A stretch of DNA of 12,305 nucleotides from Candidatus Heimdallarchaeota archaeon (lineage in GTDB: Archaea > Asgardarchaeota > Heimdallarchaeia > JABLTI01): positions 1-12,305 of the forward strand of contig JAHLVW010000004.1 of the NCBI GenBank assembly GCA_019058275.1. The letters run 5' to 3'. The position numbers were made by a program, and so were the translations under genes. Of this stretch, positions 1 to 12,305 are shown piece by piece; position 1 is the first letter of the stretch, and each line of letters begins with the position of its first letter. The notes under the pieces are model-generated. The model was given only the letters and a program-made list of their open reading frames with translations. It did not search any database and had not been told where the DNA came from.

Positions 1-93
1 CTGCAAAATGAATTACAGAAAGATCATCAATTCTCTGATGAAGAAATGCTTTTCTTAACACTCTTACTGGTCTACATTAACAAATGCTTCTAG
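1..93 (+). CDS. 3' end of a hypothetical protein (truncated by window)
   Basis: Frame 1 is open from base 1 (LQNELQKDHQFSDEEMLFLTLLLVYINKCF) to TAG at 91-93. Confidence 0.35.
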   Translation: MQNELQKDHQFSDEEMLFLTLLLVYINKCF

Positions 94-234
94 CTGCAGG
101 ATGTGTTATTATCTTTTGCTTGAGTAGATTGTGATAAATTGTTGTATAAACTAAAAAGATTAAGACGAAAAAGTTGAGACAAAAACTCGATCCTGAGGTG
201 TTGCAGATCATAGAAGAAACTCTTGGTGCTGGTG

Positions 235-755: not shown

Positions 756-1274
756 ATGGGATTATCCAATAGTGATTATATTGCTATTTCTGCAATAGTC
801 TTATCGTTTGCTACTTTTATTTTTACATATTATCGTACCAAGAAGATAGGACCTAAAATAGAGCTTTTTGGTCCTGAATTTGATAATGATGGTTTAATTC
901 AAGATGATAGACTTTTCTTTATAAGTTTTAATATTTATGGAGAAAATCTTGGCGATAAAACAACCGAATTGATCGTTGATCCTAAAATAATTGCCTATGA
1001 TGCAAATGATACTGCATTATGCTCTAATGAAGATGTAACACTTTATCAATACAATTATAAGAAATCTATTGGCATACCTACCACTAAACCTCTAATATTA
1101 ACCTTTGATTTCAATCTACCATTACCAGCTCAACCATGGAAAAGTGCCAAAATTAAATTTAATGCTTATTACTATAAACGAAAACGATTTGCTAAATTCT
1201 ATGAAATAAGAAAAAAGAATGTAAGGAAAAAAGTCTACTTAAAAAGAGATGAGTTTACAATTTTTAAAAAATAA
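756..1274 (+). CDS. N-terminally membrane-anchored hypothetical protein, probable beta-sandwich domain; paralog of 4826..5356
   Basis: Hydrophobic helix IAISAIVLSFATFIFTYY followed by basic residues; alternating beta-strand pattern; shared motif F-x-F-x-x-PL-x-A-x-x-WK-x-AKI-x-F. Confidence 0.8.
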   Translation: MGLSNSDYIAISAIVLSFATFIFTYYRTKKIGPKIELFGPEFDNDGLIQDDRLFFISFNIYGENLGDKTTELIVDPKIIAYDANDTALCSNEDVTLYQYNYKKSIGIPTTKPLILTFDFNLPLPAQPWKSAKIKFNAYYYKRKRFAKFYEIRKKNVRKKVYLKRDEFTIFKK

Positions 1275-1275
1275 T

Positions 1276-1380
1276 TTAAATTCTATTCATCATTTCTTTT
1301 GGTGTTAGATGAACACAAACTGGTTCTTCAGGATGGCATTTTTGAGAGCAACCTGCAGCTATGATAAGGATTGATATCAT
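1276..1380 (-). pseudogene. junction repeat R1 copy A: remnant of a small Cys-rich peptide gene
   Basis: Minus strand reads ...GCSQKCHPEEPVCVHLTPKEMMNRI*; 1315-1339 matches 2792-2816 at 21/25 and 9146-9170 at 19/25. Confidence 0.55.
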
Positions 1381-1384
1381 ATTT
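1357..1384. promoter_or_regulatory. degenerate 11-6-11 inverted repeat, related to 5349..5376
   Basis: AGCTATGATAA-GGATTG-ATATCATATTT; reverse complement of 1360-1382 matches 5351-5373 at 19/23. Confidence 0.35.
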
Positions 1385-1465
1385 CTTTATTAAAACAAAT
1401 CAGCATCTGTTTAACAACATTTGTTTTTAAGGAAATTATTAATAATAACAGAGTAATTTAATTAT

Positions 1466-2521
1466 ATGGGAAAGGAAATGGCTAAAAAACGTGATGATAA
1501 AAAACTCTCTTTAGTTGAAAAAATGAAAATTATATCTGATTTTCCGGAAGAATTTGATATAATAAAAATTCCAACGATAATGGCTTGTTTATATCCTCCA
1601 ATTGAATTAAAGAGAAATAAAGCAAAAAAAACTTCAGATGATATGTTTGATAAAAACCTAAAATTAGTAGAAGGAGAAGTTGTTCAAATTGCTGGACAGG
1701 AATTTAGCACTCATAGTGGTTTCTTGGTAATTCATAATACTTCTTTAGATCAAGCATTAATTCATTTCAACAATGTCGCGATTCTCTTTAATTTGATAGA
1801 AATACCTATTTCATTCTTCAAAAAATATGATTTAATAATTCCATCGATAGATAAAGAAGGAAGAACAGAATTATTTAGTAAATCAAAAATATCACTTGAG
1901 AAATTTTCTTCATTAGACACAGTAAAAACTACAAAAAAGGAACTTGATAAGATATTCGCAAGTTGCTCAATTATTTGGGATGCAATTCAGGAAAATGATT
2001 TTTTGAAAAAATCACAACCATACGAATTTTTAGCTCGAGGAAACATGGAACTGATAAATCAAAACTATCGGGTATCATTTATGCATTCTTGGATTTTTAT
2101 AGAAGCATTATTAAGAAATCAGTGGGAAAAATTAGTGGAAGAGAAGCATAAGGAAATGAAAATACCTGATAATTTAAAGGACCTTATTGAAGATTTTAAT
2201 CTAAAGAAACATCGAGAAGGTCTTATTGGCGATGTAAGATCATGGTCAATAGGAGTTATATTGGAAATTCTATATCTTGATGGAATAATAAGTGATCAGT
2301 TTTTAGCTATTTTAATTCTTCTGAAACAAAAAAGAAATGATATTTTCCATTTCAAAAAAAGTAAAGTAAAAAGAATAATTGATGAAACAACAGCAATTAA
2401 AGCATTGATAACTGGAAGAACTTTACTGTTTCTTGAATGTGGTATAGATTTAAGTCTTATAGAGAAAATAACCTTTTCGAAAATAAGTTTACAGATAAAT
2501 CAAATTTTACATGGTTATTAG
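1466..2521 (+). CDS. HEPN-domain protein (ApeA-like architecture), putative defence RNase
   Basis: C-terminal RX4H motif (KRNDIFH), preceded by HEPN-type helices (YRVSFMHSWIFIEALL); ~180 aa uncharacterised N-terminal domain. Confidence 0.75.
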   Translation: MGKEMAKKRDDKKLSLVEKMKIISDFPEEFDIIKIPTIMACLYPPIELKRNKAKKTSDDMFDKNLKLVEGEVVQIAGQEFSTHSGFLVIHNTSLDQALIHFNNVAILFNLIEIPISFFKKYDLIIPSIDKEGRTELFSKSKISLEKFSSLDTVKTTKKELDKIFASCSIIWDAIQENDFLKKSQPYEFLARGNMELINQNYRVSFMHSWIFIEALLRNQWEKLVEEKHKEMKIPDNLKDLIEDFNLKKHREGLIGDVRSWSIGVILEILYLDGIISDQFLAILILLKQKRNDIFHFKKSKVKRIIDETTAIKALITGRTLLFLECGIDLSLIEKITFSKISLQINQILHGY

Positions 2522-2600
2522 TAGAATTTTCCTTAGCAATCTTTATTTAATTGCTTGATGTTTAGTACCCAGTTTGAAATAAGGAAAACTGGTGGTGATT

Positions 2601-2750
2601 TTGATAGAGGGTAATAATTTTATTGAAAAATTAAATAATTTACAAAAAATTGGTTGGGTAAAATCAAGAAGGAGAGGAAATACTGGGATAGGCAAAACCT
2701 TAGAAGATTTTCTTGAATCCCTGAAAACAATAAAAAAATCCCTGATTTAA
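2601..2750 (+). pseudogene. truncated, frameshifted MvaI/BcnI-family restriction endonuclease (N-terminus only)
   Basis: RBS GGTGGTGA, TTG at 2601; FIEKLNNLQKIGWVKSRRRGNTGIGKTLEDFL, then after restoring one base near 2715, (G)IPENNKKIPDL; matches the family pattern GW..S.R.G.TG.GKTLE..LGI.ENN...PD; the downstream E-x-K catalytic part is missing. Confidence 0.8.
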
Positions 2751-2773
2751 AAATCAATAATATACTATCATTC

Positions 2774-2926
2774 TCATTGTACTGGATTACTACAACCTGG
2801 TTTATCAGGATGCCATACTATTTTTCCTGGGCAACAAATAAGCTTGCCTTCCAATTCCCTGATATTTTTACAGAAAACTTTAGTTTTGGTATTGTCTTTC
2901 TCGAAAGAGCATTTATTACTAATCAA
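2774..2926 (-). CDS. small Cys-rich protein, 50 aa (junction repeat R1 copy B, apparently intact; not in ORF track)
   Basis: TTG at 2926, TGA at 2774-2776; MISNKCSFEKDNTKTKVFCKNIRELEGKLICCPGKIVWHPDKPGCSNPVQ; C-terminal motif recurs in two other spacers. Confidence 0.55.
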   Translation of the reverse strand: MISNKCSFEKDNTKTKVFCKNIRELEGKLICCPGKIVWHPDKPGCSNPVQ

Positions 2927-2968
2927 TGTAAAGTTTGTAAAATAAAATAGTATTATTGAAATTAGTTA

Positions 2969-3859
2969 TTACCAATCAAAATCTTCAGGTTCAGGTATTA
3001 AATAATTCAAACTTAATTGAGGATCATTTGGTGGAGCTACAACCATCCATTGAAAAATTTTACTCCAATCACTTAAATTCTGATTTTGATAGTATTGAAC
3101 AAAACTAGGATTATAACTTAAAGGATTTATAGATTGAGGTTCTACACAAAACCATTCATATGAACCATTTCCAAATCGCCATAATGGTCCCCAATAAACA
3201 CTAAACTCTTTTGGTAACTTTATCCATAGAAACATATGAGACGAATTCGAATATGGCTCGATTCCTTCAACAGCTTTAGTGTAATCAACAACTCCTAAAA
3301 CTGTATCAAATCCTGAAAATTCAAATAATGTACTAGTAAAAGTTGAGAATTCTTGACAATCACCCATACAATAAAGAGCTGTTTCTAAGGGTGAACGAAT
3401 AAGTGTTATATTTTCATCGAGGTTTTCAACCCATGTTTCATCTTCGATATATTTTAGGTTTAGAGTAATGTTTTCATGTAGATCATTATAATGTGTATTT
3501 TTAGTCCATATTTTAGACCATATTGGGTGGTTTGAGAAAGTAAAATTCACCCACTCCATGGTATGTTGTAAATCTATATTTTTCAAATCCTTAATATTAT
3601 AATAGATAAAGGGATTATATTGACATGAATCATGAAGTACCAAATCTACATAGAATTGGCTTTGATTTACTACGTTTTGATAATTTTTTCTTAAGATATT
3701 ATAAAAATTTGACAATTGGACATCATATGAAGCATTTGACATTGAATAATTAAATTGATTATATTTGATACTAATAATCACACTTCCAACGATAATTCCA
3801 ATTAAAAAAAGACAATTAAAAATTAAAAACACTATATTCCAAAAATTAGATTTCTTCAT
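2969..3859 (-). CDS. membrane-anchored transglutaminase-like (papain-fold) cysteine protease superfamily protein
   Basis: SPLETALYCMGDCQEF (P.ET....GDC motif), SHMFLWI (His), WFCVEP (acidic triad residue); N-terminal TM helix. Start moved from GTG 3871 to ATG 3859 because AGGTGA at 3868-3873 is the likely RBS. Confidence 0.8.
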   Translation of the reverse strand: MKKSNFWNIVFLIFNCLFLIGIIVGSVIISIKYNQFNYSMSNASYDVQLSNFYNILRKNYQNVVNQSQFYVDLVLHDSCQYNPFIYYNIKDLKNIDLQHTMEWVNFTFSNHPIWSKIWTKNTHYNDLHENITLNLKYIEDETWVENLDENITLIRSPLETALYCMGDCQEFSTFTSTLFEFSGFDTVLGVVDYTKAVEGIEPYSNSSHMFLWIKLPKEFSVYWGPLWRFGNGSYEWFCVEPQSINPLSYNPSFVQYYQNQNLSDWSKIFQWMVVAPPNDPQLSLNYLIPEPEDFDW

Positions 3860-3915
3860 TAATATACTCACCTTTTCTTTTTATTAATTTATCTTAATTT
3901 CCATTTAAATAACTT

Positions 3916-3958
3916 TCATTTTATTCACGTTGTTTTTCTTTTAAATTTATCAACGGAA
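3916..3958 (+). repeat. intergenic repeat R2 copy 1
   Basis: TCATTTTATTCACGTTGTTTTTCTTTTAAATTTATCAACGGAA aligns with 6034-6080 with short gaps. Confidence 0.55.
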
Positions 3959-4060
3959 TTTTTATTTCCTAGTTAGAAAACCAAAAATTTTTTATTTTTA
4001 AAAATAAAAAAGTAATTAACATGAATTTTTCTTTGAAAAGGAATAAACAAGGTGTAAAGT

Positions 4061-4690
4061 TTGTCAGAGAAATTGACACAAAGGAATAAGAAAATCATTT
4101 TTGGCGGTCTGATTTGTATTTTTTTAATCATTTCAGTAACAATAAATGTAAAGATTTTTGTTTATGAAAACAATAATCGTTCAAAAACTCACTTCTCCAT
4201 AGTACCCGCAAATGATGATAATGCCTTTCACACATATCGTAATCTCACAAAAGGTGAAAGATTTTATTATGAAATTTTTATTTATGGAGAAAATGTTAGT
4301 GATTTATCAATTTTCTTGGTAACTGATGATATTTATTTCAATGTACCAAGAACCAGTTTACATGATGATTGTGTATATTACGATTACCATGGGATAATTA
4401 TTCGATATCCTACTGATTTTAGAACAGAATCCGGAGAGGTTAAGATACCAATTGAAGCAGATTATTTAATTATTCTAATTAATCAAGAAGATGAAGATCT
4501 TGAAGTAGAATTCTTTTATCAAACGGCTTCGAGATTTTATACATTTTCCAAGATAACAAATAATATATTTATTTCAATAGCTGCTTTACTACTTCCAGTT
4601 ATAACAGTCTATCTTGCATACATCGAAATTTCAAAGAAAGATGAGAAATCTATTGTAGAACAGAAAGAGAAACAACCAATCCAACCTTGA
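4061..4690 (+). CDS. membrane protein with N- and C-terminal TM helices around a beta-sandwich (GOLD/p24-like) domain
   Basis: RBS AAGGTG, TTG start; TM IIFGGLICIFLIISVTI and IFISIAALLLPVITVYLAYI; LTKGERFYYEIFI...LSIFLVT...SGEVKIPIEADYLIILIN pattern resembles archaeal GOLD-like domains. Confidence 0.7.
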   Translation: MSEKLTQRNKKIIFGGLICIFLIISVTINVKIFVYENNNRSKTHFSIVPANDDNAFHTYRNLTKGERFYYEIFIYGENVSDLSIFLVTDDIYFNVPRTSLHDDCVYYDYHGIIIRYPTDFRTESGEVKIPIEADYLIILINQEDEDLEVEFFYQTASRFYTFSKITNNIFISIAALLLPVITVYLAYIEISKKDEKSIVEQKEKQPIQP

Positions 4691-4710
4691 ATAATTATTC
4701 TCCCCCTTTC

Positions 4711-4746
4711 TTTTTTTTTCTAAATATATCAATAGAAAAGCTTCAG
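4711..4746 (+). repeat. intergenic repeat R2 copy 2, starting with an oligo-T tract (likely terminator)
   Basis: 4718-4739 TTCTAAATATATCAATAGAAAA matches 6061-6082 at 20/22; both are followed by TTCAGT. Confidence 0.6.
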
Positions 4747-4825
4747 TTTTATTTTTTGTCAGAGAAAGTATTAAGTATCTATTTGAGTAAATACTCTTTG
4801 AAAATTTCATGGGCGTTAATTAAAT

Positions 4826-5356
4826 ATGGTTGATTGGAATAGTGTATGGTTATTTATCAGAGATAATGGATTAATTGCTATTGTTATTAGTATTCTTACT
4901 CTAATAGCAGTAATAATTGATAAATTACGTCAAAGAAGAAAGAAACCTAACTTCAAACATTACTCGTATGAGTTAAGCTCTTCAGGAGAAGCTTCACCTG
5001 ATGTTCCTATAGATGCTGATAAAGATGCAAGATTCTGTAAAATAAATATACTTCATGTAAGAGGAAATAAAGGAGACATTGATGCAAGATTTGAATATTC
5101 TGCAACAATCAAATTATTGAACACTCTTGATAAAGACAACAATCCATTTAAGCAAAAAACAATTGAAGTTTTCGAGGGTGACTTGCTAGCAGATGTTCCT
5201 CCATCACCAAAAAGATTTGTTTTTAAATTTCCACTTGAAGCTGAAAAATGGAAAAAAGCCAAAATCCGATTTCATGGAACAATTTCTTACAAAAATTCAG
5301 TAAAGGAATTTAGAACAAGATGGTATAAAATAGAAAACACCTTTAACATTATATGA
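4826..5356 (+). CDS. N-terminally membrane-anchored hypothetical protein; paralog of 756..1274
   Basis: TM LIAIVISILTLIAVII followed by RQRRKKP; FVFKFPLEAEKWKKAKIRF motif; AAAGTATTAAG TATA-like element at 4765-4775. Confidence 0.8.
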   Translation: MVDWNSVWLFIRDNGLIAIVISILTLIAVIIDKLRQRRKKPNFKHYSYELSSSGEASPDVPIDADKDARFCKINILHVRGNKGDIDARFEYSATIKLLNTLDKDNNPFKQKTIEVFEGDLLADVPPSPKRFVFKFPLEAEKWKKAKIRFHGTISYKNSVKEFRTRWYKIENTFNII

Positions 5357-5376
5357 TAATATGCCTTATCATATAA
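5349..5376. promoter_or_regulatory. perfect 11-6-11 inverted repeat, dif-like site or operator
   Basis: TTATATGATAA-TATGCC-TTATCATATAA, overlapping the stop codon of 4826..5356. Confidence 0.55.
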
Positions 5377-5452
5377 CATGAAATCTGCAAAAATGTTATA
5401 AAATTAATCAGACATTACAAATTCATTTAAGATTGGCGAAGTAGGTGTATTT

Positions 5453-6010
5453 ATGTCTTGGGAAGGATTCTTAACAAATTTCTTTAGTGAATTATTAGCA
5501 ACAATAATAGGTTTGGCTCTAGGTATTCCAATAGGTATTTGGCTTAATCGTAAATTTGAGGTTTGGAAAAAAAAACAAGAAGAACAAAAGGAAATTGAAT
5601 TACTACAAAAAGAGAAAAGAACAGTCTTAGAAAGTCTAAAAAATGAATTTGAGAGAAATATTAAACTTTTGAAACAAATAGAAAAGAAAGTAAGAAATAG
5701 GGTTATTCTTGGTCATCTTGATTTAAGTGAATGGAAAGCAATTTCTTTAAAAAGTACTAACCTCATAGATAATTATACATTACAAAAGGCACTTGATAGA
5801 GTCTATTATGAATATGAACATTTGCAAAGAAAAATAAATAAACACTTTGACTTCTATTTTAGTACAGCCCAAACACTATCCAATTTTAAAGATGATTTTG
5901 CAAAATTAAATAATTCAATTTATGATCAAATTAATTCTTTTTTGTTAGAACTAAGTGAAAAAACTCTTGATTTTATTAAACTAGAATTAGAAGTATTAAA
6001 TGAAAAATAA
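5453..6010 (+). CDS. hypothetical protein: N-terminal TM helix, coiled coil, helical domain
   Basis: RBS AGGTG; LLATIIGLALGIPIGIWL hydrophobic helix, then K/E-rich heptads. Confidence 0.8.
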   Translation: MSWEGFLTNFFSELLATIIGLALGIPIGIWLNRKFEVWKKKQEEQKEIELLQKEKRTVLESLKNEFERNIKLLKQIEKKVRNRVILGHLDLSEWKAISLKSTNLIDNYTLQKALDRVYYEYEHLQRKINKHFDFYFSTAQTLSNFKDDFAKLNNSIYDQINSFLLELSEKTLDFIKLELEVLNEK

Positions 6011-6033
6011 GTAATTTCCCTATTTTTTATTTG

Positions 6034-6094
6034 TCATTTTATACTCATAGTTGTTTTTCCTTCTAAATATACCAACAGAAAAAATACTTTCAGT
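6034..6094 (+). repeat. intergenic repeat R2 copy 3
   Basis: Longest copy; 5' part matches 3916-3958, 3' part matches 4718-4746. Confidence 0.6.
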
Positions 6095-6267
6095 AAACTA
6101 GCTCTCTGATGCTTTCGTTTAAATAGTTTCAAAACAACTTCTTGCTGAAGAGGTTTCATCCATGTCTAAAGCATTAGAACTAATCCTCTTGATTTGGTAT
6201 CTCAAGTAGTTCCTTTTAAGACTTTTTAATCATATTTTTTCTTAACAAATAGATTACCCTATAATGA

Positions 6268-6936
6268 TTATAAACCCAACATCCAAACTACATATCCATC
6301 TACATCTCTAAAATCAGATAAGAAATTTTTATCATTTCTAAATTTGACAAAGAACTCTCTTTCATTTAAATAATCAATTAATTTATGCGAAAATTTCCTT
6401 TGATAGTAATCACCAATAACTTTTCTAGACTTACTATTAACAATTGGAAAAGCAATTGGATGAATACAATACAAAATTGGAGAAATAAAAGCTGATTGTA
6501 ATTTTGGTATATTGTAATCAGCAAATTTTTCGAGAGCCATAAGAAGAGTTTCTATATTTTCACTTTTAGTAAATACTAGTGTTTGTAATAAATTCCTAAA
6601 AGCAAGTAAATATTCCTTATTGTTAAAAACATCGCTAAATTCTTGCTTGGGCAAACCCCAACAACCGACATCACTAGAAATCAGTGAAAGTATTTCTTTT
6701 TTTGAAACAGGATTAATATCCAAAAGAGTAATTTTTTCTATTTTTTTAGCTGGACCAATTGTTTTACCATGAGCGGTCATAGCAATTATAACATTAAAAT
6801 CATTAACAGAAAAATTATCTTTTCGAATTAAAATACTCTCAATTACTTTTCTAACAATTTTTCTTGTAATTGTACCTTGATTTATCCGCCATATTCTTTC
6901 ATAACTGTTTTTATAATCATAAATTTCCTTTTCCAT
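6268..6936 (-). CDS. stand-alone HhH/glycosylase-like domain of the type often fused to McrB-like or other restriction nucleases
   Basis: RBS GAGGA; IPKLQSAFISPILYCIHPIAFPIVN and terminal FRDVDGYVVW motifs. Confidence 0.6.
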   Translation of the reverse strand: MEKEIYDYKNSYERIWRINQGTITRKIVRKVIESILIRKDNFSVNDFNVIIAMTAHGKTIGPAKKIEKITLLDINPVSKKEILSLISSDVGCWGLPKQEFSDVFNNKEYLLAFRNLLQTLVFTKSENIETLLMALEKFADYNIPKLQSAFISPILYCIHPIAFPIVNSKSRKVIGDYYQRKFSHKLIDYLNEREFFVKFRNDKNFLSDFRDVDGYVVWMLGL

Positions 6937-7262
6937 TTTTATTCCTCAATTTGACATTCTTTAACCTTCATTCATCCCCATATAATTAGAATATTGCTAA
7001 GTTAATTGATTGATAAGTTTTATTGAAAAATATTTCTATCAAAACTACCAAAGAACAAGCTGGGTAGTTATTTGTGTTATAAGATGGAAGAAATAAGTCA
7101 GATTTCTATGAAAATATTGTTGTTTATATGGTTGCTAATAATGTAAAGATTAATCCAATTAATGGTACTATATTTTTTCTTATTCTTTGTTTCTTCTTAT
7201 CGAAATGTATTAATAGTAATTCGCAAAGATTTTATTAGAAATATGAATGGTAGGGGTTTTTT

Positions 7263-8561
7263 TTGCTAAGTGGAATTATTATAGATCATTTTAAAGGGAT
7301 TTTAAAATCTGAAATTGATCTAAAAGTAATTACAATTTTAATTGGTCCAAATGGTTCAGGTAAATCATCAATTGGACAAGCACTTCTGATTCTAAATCAA
7401 TCATTAGATTTTTTTAGTTCAAGAGGTTTATTAAGAAATAAAAATATAAAGTCATCAGGTAGATTTTTGGACTTAGGAAATTTAGATAATTTATATTATC
7501 AAAAAAATGAAAAAAATCCAATAATAATCTCATTAAAAAATAAGTATGAGGATTTGGAATCCATAATTAACTTTGAAATTAAAAATAGTAAAATCAATTT
7601 AGCAAATATAACTTTTAAAGGACTTGGATCCTATAATTTTCTTGATTCCAATAATGATTTAGTTAATGATATTACTATTAAAAGAGGAACGAGAAAATCT
7701 CTAAGTAATGAAAATTTCTCATTCAGTTTCAGTTTAAGAGATAGTCTTCAACCAATTAATATAGGTTTAAGTTTTAAAGCTAGTAAAAAAACAAGTAATG
7801 TAGAGATTCAAGCAAATGAAATAATAGAAGAACTTAACAAACTAGTAAATTTGGAAAATATCTTAAATAAAGTCTTTTATGTTCCTGCTTTAAGAGGAAC
7901 TGATAAACCATCTCATTCACTTGTTGATGATTCAATCACACATCTTAGTCCACCCAATTTAAATTATGATAAAAGAAATGATAGTTGGCTTAGTAAGCTG
8001 CTTTATGAGGATGAGCTTTTTAATTTGGTTTCTGCTTGGTGTGAAGAATTATTTAAAACTAAACTGAAACTTGATATTAAACCTGGAAAGAAATTGTTAC
8101 TCAGTAGGTCATTGAGTTTATCAGATAGTGTAGAAGAAATAAAAGTAAGTCTAATTAACGAAGGATTTGGTTTAAATCAAGTTGCTTTTCTTTTATCCCA
8201 ATTAGCCATTGCACCTAATGGAAGTCTTGTAATAATTGAAGAACCTGAAATACATCTACATCCAAAAGCCCAAAGTAAATTAATGGAGATTCTAATAAAT
8301 CATGCATTAGAAACTGATAAGAAGCTCTTGATTACTACACATAGTGAACATATAATATACTATGCATTAACAAAAATCGGGTTAAAGGAAATGAATCAAG
8401 ATAACTTGTCTCTATATTATTTTCAAAAAGAAAATGATTTTTGTTCCAGTAGCAAGATAAAATTTGATAAGAATGGTCAACTAGAAGAGGGTTTACCAGG
8501 TTTTTTTGATGCAAATCTAGAGAGATTTCAACGTTACCAGAAGATTTTGATGGATAAGTAA
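7263..8561 (+). CDS. ABC/AAA ATPase (AAA_15/AAA_21-type, with DUF3696-like C-terminus)
   Basis: Walker A GPNGSGKS, signature-region EGFGLNQ, Walker B/D-loop IIEEPEIHLHP, H-loop TTHSEH, C-terminal PGFFD. Confidence 0.9.
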   Translation: MLSGIIIDHFKGILKSEIDLKVITILIGPNGSGKSSIGQALLILNQSLDFFSSRGLLRNKNIKSSGRFLDLGNLDNLYYQKNEKNPIIISLKNKYEDLESIINFEIKNSKINLANITFKGLGSYNFLDSNNDLVNDITIKRGTRKSLSNENFSFSFSLRDSLQPINIGLSFKASKKTSNVEIQANEIIEELNKLVNLENILNKVFYVPALRGTDKPSHSLVDDSITHLSPPNLNYDKRNDSWLSKLLYEDELFNLVSAWCEELFKTKLKLDIKPGKKLLLSRSLSLSDSVEEIKVSLINEGFGLNQVAFLLSQLAIAPNGSLVIIEEPEIHLHPKAQSKLMEILINHALETDKKLLITTHSEHIIYYALTKIGLKEMNQDNLSLYYFQKENDFCSSSKIKFDKNGQLEEGLPGFFDANLERFQRYQKILMDK

Positions 8562-8573
8562 TGGGGATTTAAA

Positions 8574-9107
8574 ATGCCTAAAGAAAAGTATATCATTGAT
8601 AAGAATTGTTTTTATCATGCATCAAAAAGACAAGATCACAAAAATAATCCTGATTATGAAGCATATTTACTTTTTGGTAATATCTTGAATCATTGTGATA
8701 AAGTAGTTTTTGATGGAAATTTAATGGAATGCTATCATAAGATATTGAATGAATTGAGAGATAGTCATTTATTGTCTTTATGGAATGAATATCTAACTAT
8801 TCAAGCAAAGACTTTGAAATGGTGTGAACACGTTAAAATTAAAGATGATAAGGATATTAAATTAGAAGACAGAGTACTGGTTAGTTTAGCACGTTCATCA
8901 CAAGCAACTCTAATAACTGGAGATTTAAAACTTATAGAGGTTCTTGATCCAAATCAAGATAATCAATCTGAACGTTTTAAGATTAAAGTTTTAACACCAA
9001 AGAAAGCAAACTTTGAAATTTCTAGGAATATATTAAAGGATGAAGATACTCAAAAGACTAATAAAAAACAAGATGTGAAAAAGATATCAAAAAAAGTAAA
9101 AATATGA
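8574..9107 (+). CDS. PIN-domain protein, putative nuclease effector coupled to the ATPase
   Basis: YIIDKNCF (first Asp), EDRVLVSLA, LITGDLKL; starts 12 bp after the ATPase stop. Confidence 0.75.
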   Translation: MPKEKYIIDKNCFYHASKRQDHKNNPDYEAYLLFGNILNHCDKVVFDGNLMECYHKILNELRDSHLLSLWNEYLTIQAKTLKWCEHVKIKDDKDIKLEDRVLVSLARSSQATLITGDLKLIEVLDPNQDNQSERFKIKVLTPKKANFEISRNILKDEDTQKTNKKQDVKKISKKVKI

Positions 9108-9122
9108 TTGAAAACTTGTAAA

Positions 9123-9193
9123 TTCTCATTCTTTTTTGGACTGTCGCAGATTAGCTCTTCTGGATGGCATTCAGTTTTTCCCCAACAACAGCT
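9123..9193 (-). pseudogene. junction repeat R1 copy C: remnant of the Cys-rich peptide gene
   Basis: Minus strand reads SCCWGKTECHPEELICDSPKKNE and aligns without gaps to copy B ICCPGKIVWHPDKPGCSNPVQ; in-frame stops lie just upstream. Confidence 0.6.
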
Positions 9194-9380
9194 AGTTTAC
9201 AATCAACTGGTTCTTATGTTCTTCAGGAGTAGTTTTTTTACTCCTCTTTTTTTCTATTACTTGATTAATTTTTTACCTTATACATTTATGAACAGAATTT
9301 TTTACTTTAGCTCTACTCTCTCACTTAGTTGGAAGTTTATATAGCTAAATGTAAATGCTATTGTAACTAAAGCCGTGGCG

Positions 9381-9418: not shown

Positions 9419-9553
9419 ATGGCAAATAAGAATGAGCACTTGACAGAAGAGGAATTTAGGAAAATCAATTATCTAAAAGAAATCAAACTACAATTTTGTG
9501 ATGAATGTCAAAAGATAATTCGAGAGTTAATTTATGATCTTGTTGATTCGTGA
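9419..9553 (+). CDS. small CxxC protein, 44 aa (not in ORF track)
   Basis: MANKNEHLTEEEFRKINYLKEIKLQFCDECQKIIRELIYDLVDS; has its own TATA-like element, RBS and downstream hairpin. Confidence 0.65.
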   Translation: MANKNEHLTEEEFRKINYLKEIKLQFCDECQKIIRELIYDLVDS

Positions 9554-12097: not shown

Positions 12098-12305
12098 TTG
12101 GTTCGAGTAGGAAAAAAATGCAGACAGTGTGAATCTTGTATCCATACTGCCACTAAAAGAAAACATGGTCATCGAACCTTTGTTGTTGAAGAATCTACTT
12201 TTTTGATGTATTCAGATGGCAAGACTGTTCCTAATGTTAAATTCGTACCAATATGTTCTGCTGAATGTCTTGCTGAATGGGCTAGTACTTCAGAAACTCC
12301 TGCAC
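12098..12305 (+). CDS. zinc-finger protein (CxxC...CSxEC, treble-clef/TRASH-like), truncated by window
   Basis: GGAGGAG RBS, TTG at 12098; MVRVGKKCRQCESC...PICSAECLAEW, open to the window end. Confidence 0.7.
   Translation, partial: MVRVGKKCRQCESCIHTATKRKHGHRTFVVEESTFLMYSDGKTVPNVKFVPICSAECLAEWASTSETPA

Follow-up and report, generated by a model that had tools for sequence, protein, structure and literature searches.

A short, old repeat at module edges of an accessory-gene array in a Heimdall-group Asgard archaeon

The window analyzed here is the whole of contig C37 (12,305 bp; JAHLVW010000004.1) of a Heimdall-group Asgard archaeon, whose genome (G000) comprises 4.12 Mb in 118 contigs with 32.5% G+C and a completeness of 92.8%. 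The window carries accessory genes and, at three places between them, copies of a DNA unit of ~80 bp that we refer to as R1. An initial annotation of this DNA had described R1 as a small Cys-rich peptide gene whose flank acts as a hotspot for cargo genes. Our analyses show that R1 is a real, old and weak repeat, that all three copies are situated at mosaic joints or module edges of the accessory region, and that R1 is not a maintained peptide gene. The copies of R1 and the genes and gene pieces beside them are as follows:

1276-1357 (1276-1365 in the wider delimitation), minus strand: R1 copy A, between the stop of 756-1274 and a dif-like site, inside a 34-codon ATG frame (1279-1380)
2766-2850, minus strand: R1 copy B, inside a 50-codon frame (2777-2926) with a TTG start
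9118-9196, minus strand: R1 copy C, no start codon, frame open as far as 9053
756-1274, plus strand: membrane-protein paralog mem1, with relatives at 4826-5356, at C117:51.7-52.2 kb and in G004:C176
2592-2750, plus strand: truncated MvaI/BcnI restriction endonuclease relic (PF15515, E 1e-6), ending about 20 nt before copy B
2969-3871, minus strand: transglutaminase-like membrane protein, directly upstream of copy B on the same strand (tblastn E 6e-21 to a gene of G007:C127)
8988-9112, plus strand: tail of gene 8574-9107, 83% identical to G004:C415
9182-9244, plus strand: transglutaminase-like gene remnant, consisting of the last 17 codons and a hairpin (stem 9226-9244), fused to copy C

The three copies have the same orientation, are ~65-70% identical to one another and rank first among the direct-repeat families of the window (as D1). 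The stretches that share a DNA core lie where the initial annotation had placed them, their minus-strand peptides could be reproduced, and the copies do follow plus-strand open reading frames (ORFs) closely, with the first conserved block of R1 (ATTCT) 5, 19 and 14 nt past the stops of 756-1274, the relic 2592-2750 and 8574-9107, respectively. When each copy was used as a single-sequence nhmmer query against the whole genome (8.2 Mb, both strands), the list of non-self matches was headed by the other R1 copies, with E-values of 0.74 (A to B), 22 (A to C), 2 (B to A), 7.7 (B to C) and 8.5 (C to B), C to A being unlisted; rescaled to the 12.3-kb contig, these values become about 0.002-0.07. We also used a composition-aware log-odds score that was adapted to the base composition and to ~68% identity and calibrated with 300 shuffled queries. 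Under this score, nothing else in the window, on either strand, matched a copy as well as another R1 copy did, and the observed scores were attained by none of the 300 shuffles for A and B, by two for A and C and by two to four for B and C. A stringent +2/-3 score gave weaker separation from the shuffles, p being about 0.03-0.05 for A and B, and pairs with C were not above shuffles.

R1 is private to this contig. A six-frame regular-expression scan and a three-copy profile found no fourth copy in the genome, protein and DNA profiles found none in 60 relatives, and the R1 patterns had no match in viral, genome and metagenome collections. The exact core common to the copies is no longer than 8-10 nt. 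Searches of R1 for a tRNA, an Rfam family or a structured RNA found none, and its predicted folding was unexceptional, with z-scores of -0.6 to +1.1 against shuffles for both DNA strands and a consensus structure of -1.3 kcal/mol. The proposal that R1 or the second repeat of the window (R2, below) derives from the tail of the 23S rRNA gene was rejected for lack of a match. The R1 core (TTCTGGAT) resembles the bases left of chromosomal dif sites over no more than 7-8 nt, a length too small to be of use.

Copy C provides the only joint that can be reconstructed, as it is flanked on both sides by homology breaks to two different congeners, G004 and G007. On its left, the homology of 8988-9112 to G004:C415 (C415:7776-7906) breaks off 6 nt before R1. 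Gene 8574-9107 and the small gene in G004:C415 are otherwise different and share their last ~40 codons (83% DNA identity), and such shared tails point to recombination inside or just upstream of the tails of genes. On its right, window positions 9182-9297 are 83% identical to G007:C127, with the homology beginning within the 5′ end of copy C. In G007:C127 there is an intact transglutaminase-like gene (PF04473, E 1e-8; PF01841, E 6e-7) whose last 17 codons are those of the remnant and which is followed by the same hairpin and then by R2, and leftward of 9182 identity to this gene drops to about 44%, which is near chance. The homologies of copy C and of the transglutaminase tail overlap in a short stretch, CCAACAAC. 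Based on the homology breaks on both sides and on this overlap, copy C is the 3′ part of an R1 unit that a deletion has joined to the end of a gene now lost, in other words an ordinary scar formed at a short microhomology and not by a site-specific event. We also considered R1 as a whole to be the plus-strand tail of a transglutaminase-like gene and rejected this, as identity is only ~44% left of 9182 and no R1 follows the paralogs on contigs C26 and C35; only the piece 9182-9232 is such a tail.

Among the genes beside the copies, the restriction remnant before copy B was confirmed, although it retains only profile positions 1-31 of 227 in PF15515. The label "PIN" given to 8574-9107 is unsupported, since this gene had no family match in Pfam, PHROGs or PADLOC. 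Its upstream partner, the ATPase 7263-8561, gave a full-length match to the NsnB model of PADLOC (E 1e-50) and also matches the Pfam families AAA_15 and AAA_21.

Copy A is followed directly by a degenerate dif-like site, and related sites occur elsewhere in this genome and in G004. Archaeal dif is described as an 11-6-11 inverted repeat that is present once per chromosome and has conserved flanks on one side (PMC2958812). In 9 of 10 congeners the motif TATATGATAA-N6-TTATCATATA occurs exactly once per genome with a similar spacer, its reversed control has no occurrence, and local shuffles of G000 contain no site with fewer than two mismatches, all of which fits that description (PMC2958812). 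The likely chromosomal dif of the genus can be written as TATATGATAA-T(G/A)(G/A)(G/T)T(A/T)-TTATCATATA, with the conserved one-side flank TTCTCTATTTAAAGGCATATATAAATAAAG. The sites of this type considered here are:

C55:255916-255941 (G000): chromosomal dif-type site, matching the genus motif
1358-1383 (window): degenerate dif-like site beside R1 copy A, inner 8-bp arms TATGATAA / ATATCATA with 15 of 16 positions, spacer GGATTG
5350-5375 (window): extra dif-like site with perfect 10-bp arms and spacer TATGCC, holding the stop codon of 4826-5356 (mem2)
C39:4756-4781 (G000): extra dif-like site with one mismatch
C117:51702-51729 (G000): extra dif-like site with spacer GGATTG, holding the stop codon of a mem paralog
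G004:C176:863-884: extra dif-like site at the stop of a mem paralog
G004:C415:7705-7726: dif-like site with perfect 8-bp arms, 62 nt past the gene tail that precedes copy C

The extra sites of G000 are on small array contigs and vary in their spacers. Four ORFs end within the left arm of a site, namely mem2, the mem paralogs of C117 and G004:C176, and a small ORF of C39; three of these belong to the mem family. Translation at these sites terminates at the TGA within the left arm, which makes Ile the last residue of the proteins. The site at 1358 matches the genus consensus at 16 of 20 positions, 15 of 16 in the inner arms, and its arrangement with mem1 is different: the 80 bp of copy A lie between the stop of mem1 and the GGATTG site, and the last few codons of mem1 differ from those of the C117 paralog. 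The sites at mem1 and on C117 have the same spacer, GGATTG, and unrelated right flanks. The two proteins are 26% identical overall and 65% identical over their first 34 residues, a relationship at the level of the family and not of the module. The outer bases of the G004:C415 site match those of the site that adjoins copy A. By eye, the 62 nt between this site and the gene tail in G004:C415 had seemed to hold a fourth copy of R1, which was rejected based on shuffle p-values of 0.14-0.83; only the gene tail and the dif-like site are homologous there.

A second repeat, R2, with the core TTTTTCCTTCTAAATATACCAACAGAAAA, is present in four co-oriented copies:

6034-6090, plus strand: R2
3916-3963: R2
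4708-4739: R2
9256-9310: R2

R2 is also present on six or more other contigs of G000 (C4, C24, C39, C42, C49, and C73) and in G004, G005 and G007, and on two occasions, on C39 and in G004:C176, it is directly beside a dif-like site, starting a few bases after it. At the end of each plus-strand cassette of the window there is R1, R2 or a dif-like site, and of these R1 is the rare type. Contig C37 is a stretch of a Heimdall-group accessory-gene array in which dif-like sites and R2 are the commoner marks of joints. As its ends overlap other contigs (1-172 is 98% identical to C39 and 12233-12305 is 97% identical to the start of C95), it is a fragment of a longer region that was broken at repeats.

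The middle of the contig has ~27% G+C. Positions 1-755 have 38% G+C, contain no convincing ORF and are a patchwork that is 81-98% identical to C39, C49, C117, C12, G004:C176 and G005:C150; they include the region that is conserved upstream of genes of the mem family and has the inverted repeat CCTGGAT...ATCCAGG. The intergenic stretch 3933-4049 is 89-92% identical to C39:5386-5497 and G005:C150:1506-1617, and in both of these places it is ~280 nt from a copy of window 1-172, so that the same pieces occur there in another order. At 9419-9553, an ATG-initiated ORF of 44 codons with GAGGAG in front of it has the look of a genuine small gene and matches no family.

The reading that we favor, at a probability of about 45%, is that R1 is the old and diverged ~80-bp 3′ edge of some accessory-gene cassettes, whose modules are joined at dif-like sites or R2, and that it holds no working peptide gene. 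R1 would then be a cassette-borne flank between the stop of the cargo gene and a dif-like joint and, given the T-rich run that comes right after the stop, it may carry the end of the cargo transcript; beyond serving as this 3′ flank it would probably have no function. All copies would originally have been followed by a dif-like site, and three cassettes with related 3′ edges could have been united in one array by stacking or exchange at the joints. The exchange at the extra dif-like sites would presumably have been performed by the XerA of the host, and later ordinary deletions would have cut into the cassettes to produce the present scars.

Several observations weigh against this reading. A dif-like site adjoins only copy A; for copy C its former presence is deduced from a single congener, in which the 62 nt between gene tail and site are not significantly R1-like, and copy B has none. 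Four of the seven extra dif-like sites follow members of the mem family, and so the sites may be a feature of that family instead of a general joint. Their spacers differ, which an exchange of the Xer type would not easily tolerate. Six tyrosine recombinase genes are encoded elsewhere in the genome, with C55:205761-206210 as the candidate XerA, and none on contig C37, which is only part of the array. The core of R1 (~20 bp) is better kept than its flanks, hinting at a constraint that the reading does not name, and copy A resembles the N-terminus of DUF6884 proteins.

This last resemblance is the basis for the best and sole lead to the origin of R1, and it is only suggestive: the copies may be decayed 5′ stubs, consisting of the first 30-35 codons on the minus strand, of a DUF6884/DpdC-like gene whose body was replaced by cargo at a fixed point. 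We regard this as possible but rather improbable. The weak matches of the R1 DNA model in relatives hit the heads of DUF6884 genes (G020:C180, G028:C24, and G024:C109), and in single BLASTP comparisons the A frame matched the proteins of G020 and G000 with E-values of 5e-6 and 2e-5; these values overstate the similarity, as 61 genomes had been scanned to arrive at this lead. The alignment with DUF6884 (PF21818) begins at the start codon and proceeds colinearly through residue 34 (C-S-x-K, P-x-E-P-x-C, K-E-M), so that Cys, Lys, Pro, Pro and Cys coincide, hhalign of the R1 core against family heads gave P-values of 2e-4 to 8e-4, and the three copies end at about the same codon. A profile of the heads built from 18 relatives without R1 ranked the A frame second of 155,139 six-frame pieces (E 0.037). 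However, once the hydrophobic strand that is spelled by the dif-like palindrome is left out, the A frame falls to rank 3 (E 0.2), and copies B and C score only 3.0 and 2.7 bits, neither being found alone. The A frame also had no Pfam match to DUF6884, and R1 holds only ~30 residues of such a protein, with no remnant of a gene body found on the contig.

The DUF6884 gene is near single-copy in these archaea. We considered the chromosomal gene of G000 (C55:113280-113984) as the root of the array and rejected it, because its gene neighborhood is ordinary and conserved among its orthologs, and no stubs precede it. Near the DUF6884 gene of G004, positions 1261-1299 have a 39-nt match, which is the AT-rich end of a gene and was judged to be due to chance. 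The genome, which is 92.8% complete, yielded no intact parent gene of R1 that could be the root of the array, so that such a root may lie in unassembled DNA.

The model of the initial annotation, in which the flank of R1 is a site-specific hotspot and modules of cargo plus an R1 fragment are stacked as in an integron lacking attC sites, we consider unlikely. In its favor, three different left partners join R1 within 5-19 nt of the first conserved block, and the copies are co-oriented and have diverged as cassette-borne sites would. Its description of R1 as a mark of junctions stands, in that the copies are at module edges, but the idea that the R1 flank attracts cargo does not: R1 occurs only three times, all on one contig, and in 0 of 60 relatives; there is no conserved attC-like fold and no long exact core; and the joint at copy C is a deletion. 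It is R2 and the dif-like sites that recur across the genus and are the commoner marks of joints.

It is very unlikely that copy A, copy B or both encode working small Cys-rich proteins, such as a regulator, antitoxin or metal-binding peptide that travels with defense cargo, copy C being dead. The open frames of A and B, the residues common to all three copies (Cys, Lys, His-Pro, Pro, and Cys), the excess of changes at third positions within an 8-codon core and the proximity of defense genes such as the NsnB-like ATPase would all agree with such a role. The frame itself has not been kept, however. Copy B had been singled out as the intact one, yet TTG is the only start of its 50 codons (there is no ATG or GTG) and it is copy A that has an ATG, in a frame whose first seven codons are spelled by the adjacent dif-like palindrome. 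Copy C has lost its coding capacity: it lacks a start, two stops interrupt its frame shortly before the motif, and the stop of A and B is missing from it, and so an intact frame with start and stop, as all members of a small-gene family would have, is not common to the copies. Differences at codon positions 1, 2 and 3 number 19, 21 and 27 over the 19-21 alignable codons, so that no third-position excess, and with it no sign of the purifying selection expected of intact copies, was seen over that length; among the 12-16 changed codons of each pair, 0-4 are synonymous and 9-13 non-synonymous. Relative to the core, copies B and C do not share a reading frame over the conserved 3′ block AATGAGAAT; therefore it is DNA that has been kept there and not protein. 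The stop-to-stop frame of copy B (2777-2965) is in the same phase as the transglutaminase-like gene 2969-3871 upstream, from which it is set apart by TAA TAA and three codons, and this shared phase is probably coincidental.

Nor did the peptide yield a genuine homolog in the genome, the 60 relatives or the protein, viral and metagenome collections. A word-indexed search of 5.8e9 proteins returned none, the frames match no Pfam family, and phmmer against 1.84e9 representatives gave only three matches, all giant HYR-repeat proteins of 1,900-2,900 residues. These matches, to copy B (E 4e-9), were rejected since the score is summed over up to seven weak repeats and the conserved Cys of the HYR domain does not align with copy B. 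Similarly, a match of copy B to a beta-helix protein on C38 (tblastn E 0.001, without composition correction) involves a low-complexity, N-rich repeat. The case shows how easily a conserved short relic of DNA can be mistaken for a Cys-rich peptide.

Lastly, that R1 is a chance similarity of AT-rich intergenic DNA is highly improbable, because, despite modest pairwise scores (genome-wide E-values of 0.7-22) and a stringent score that leaves pairs with C no better than shuffles, all non-self matches listed from the 4.1-Mb genome share the 12-kb contig, the strand and the position relative to a gene end, and with suitable scoring the observed scores are met by only 0-4 of 300 shuffles.

Taken alone, R1 is of little consequence, being a decaying repeat confined to this contig, and the notion of a micro-gene that attracts cargo should be abandoned. 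Its surroundings matter more, as the genus has a single dif per genome and the extra copies here are situated exactly at the stop codons of accessory genes, and the mosaic that holds them has modules which reappear beside other neighbors in sister species. A broader proposal, which we put forward as doubtful, is that Heimdall-group Asgard archaea may shuffle accessory genes by means of XerA, the recombinase of chromosome resolution, with cassettes that carry a dif-like site at the 3′ end and with R1 as an arm beside that site, by analogy with attC and with the accessory sequences of plasmid Xer systems. If XerA does act at the extra sites, they would be the first archaeal equivalent of the dif modules of bacteria and would offer a testable mechanism of gene gain in close archaeal relatives of eukaryotes.

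R1 belongs to no known family, and it is best compared with systems in which small modules carry their own joints. The attC sites of integrons are cassette-borne and poorly conserved, are 60-140 bp in length and are found in one orientation at the 3′ end of promoterless cargo, and integrons have reportedly been described in archaea as well (by Ghaly et al. in 2022). R1 is likewise cassette-borne, weakly conserved, 3′ of cargo and co-oriented, but it has no imperfect-palindrome fold, is accompanied by neither IntI nor attI, and is present in three copies only. The site of the genus fits the 11-6-11, once-per-chromosome description of the archaeal XerA/dif system (Cortez et al., 2010, PMC2958812; reviewed in PMC5357621); that work concerns the resolution of chromosomes, and extra sites at the ends of accessory genes are outside it. 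In Acinetobacter, plasmid dif (pdif) modules are small accessory-gene modules bounded by copies of the 28-bp Xer site of the host, and extra dif-like sites on chromosomes are a related case (PMC6449649, PMC13141974, PMC12907356). The array resembles these in having extra sites besides a single chromosomal dif, modules that seem to have varied neighbors and no dedicated recombinase nearby. It differs from them in that the host is an Asgard archaeon and the site is palindromic, of the single-recombinase type; in that the sites are few, have differing spacers, mostly follow one gene family and are known from sequence alone; and in the presence of R1, since pdif modules have no extra 80-bp segment of this kind beside the site. 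By analogy, the layout would work most like the dif modules of Acinetobacter and less like integrons.

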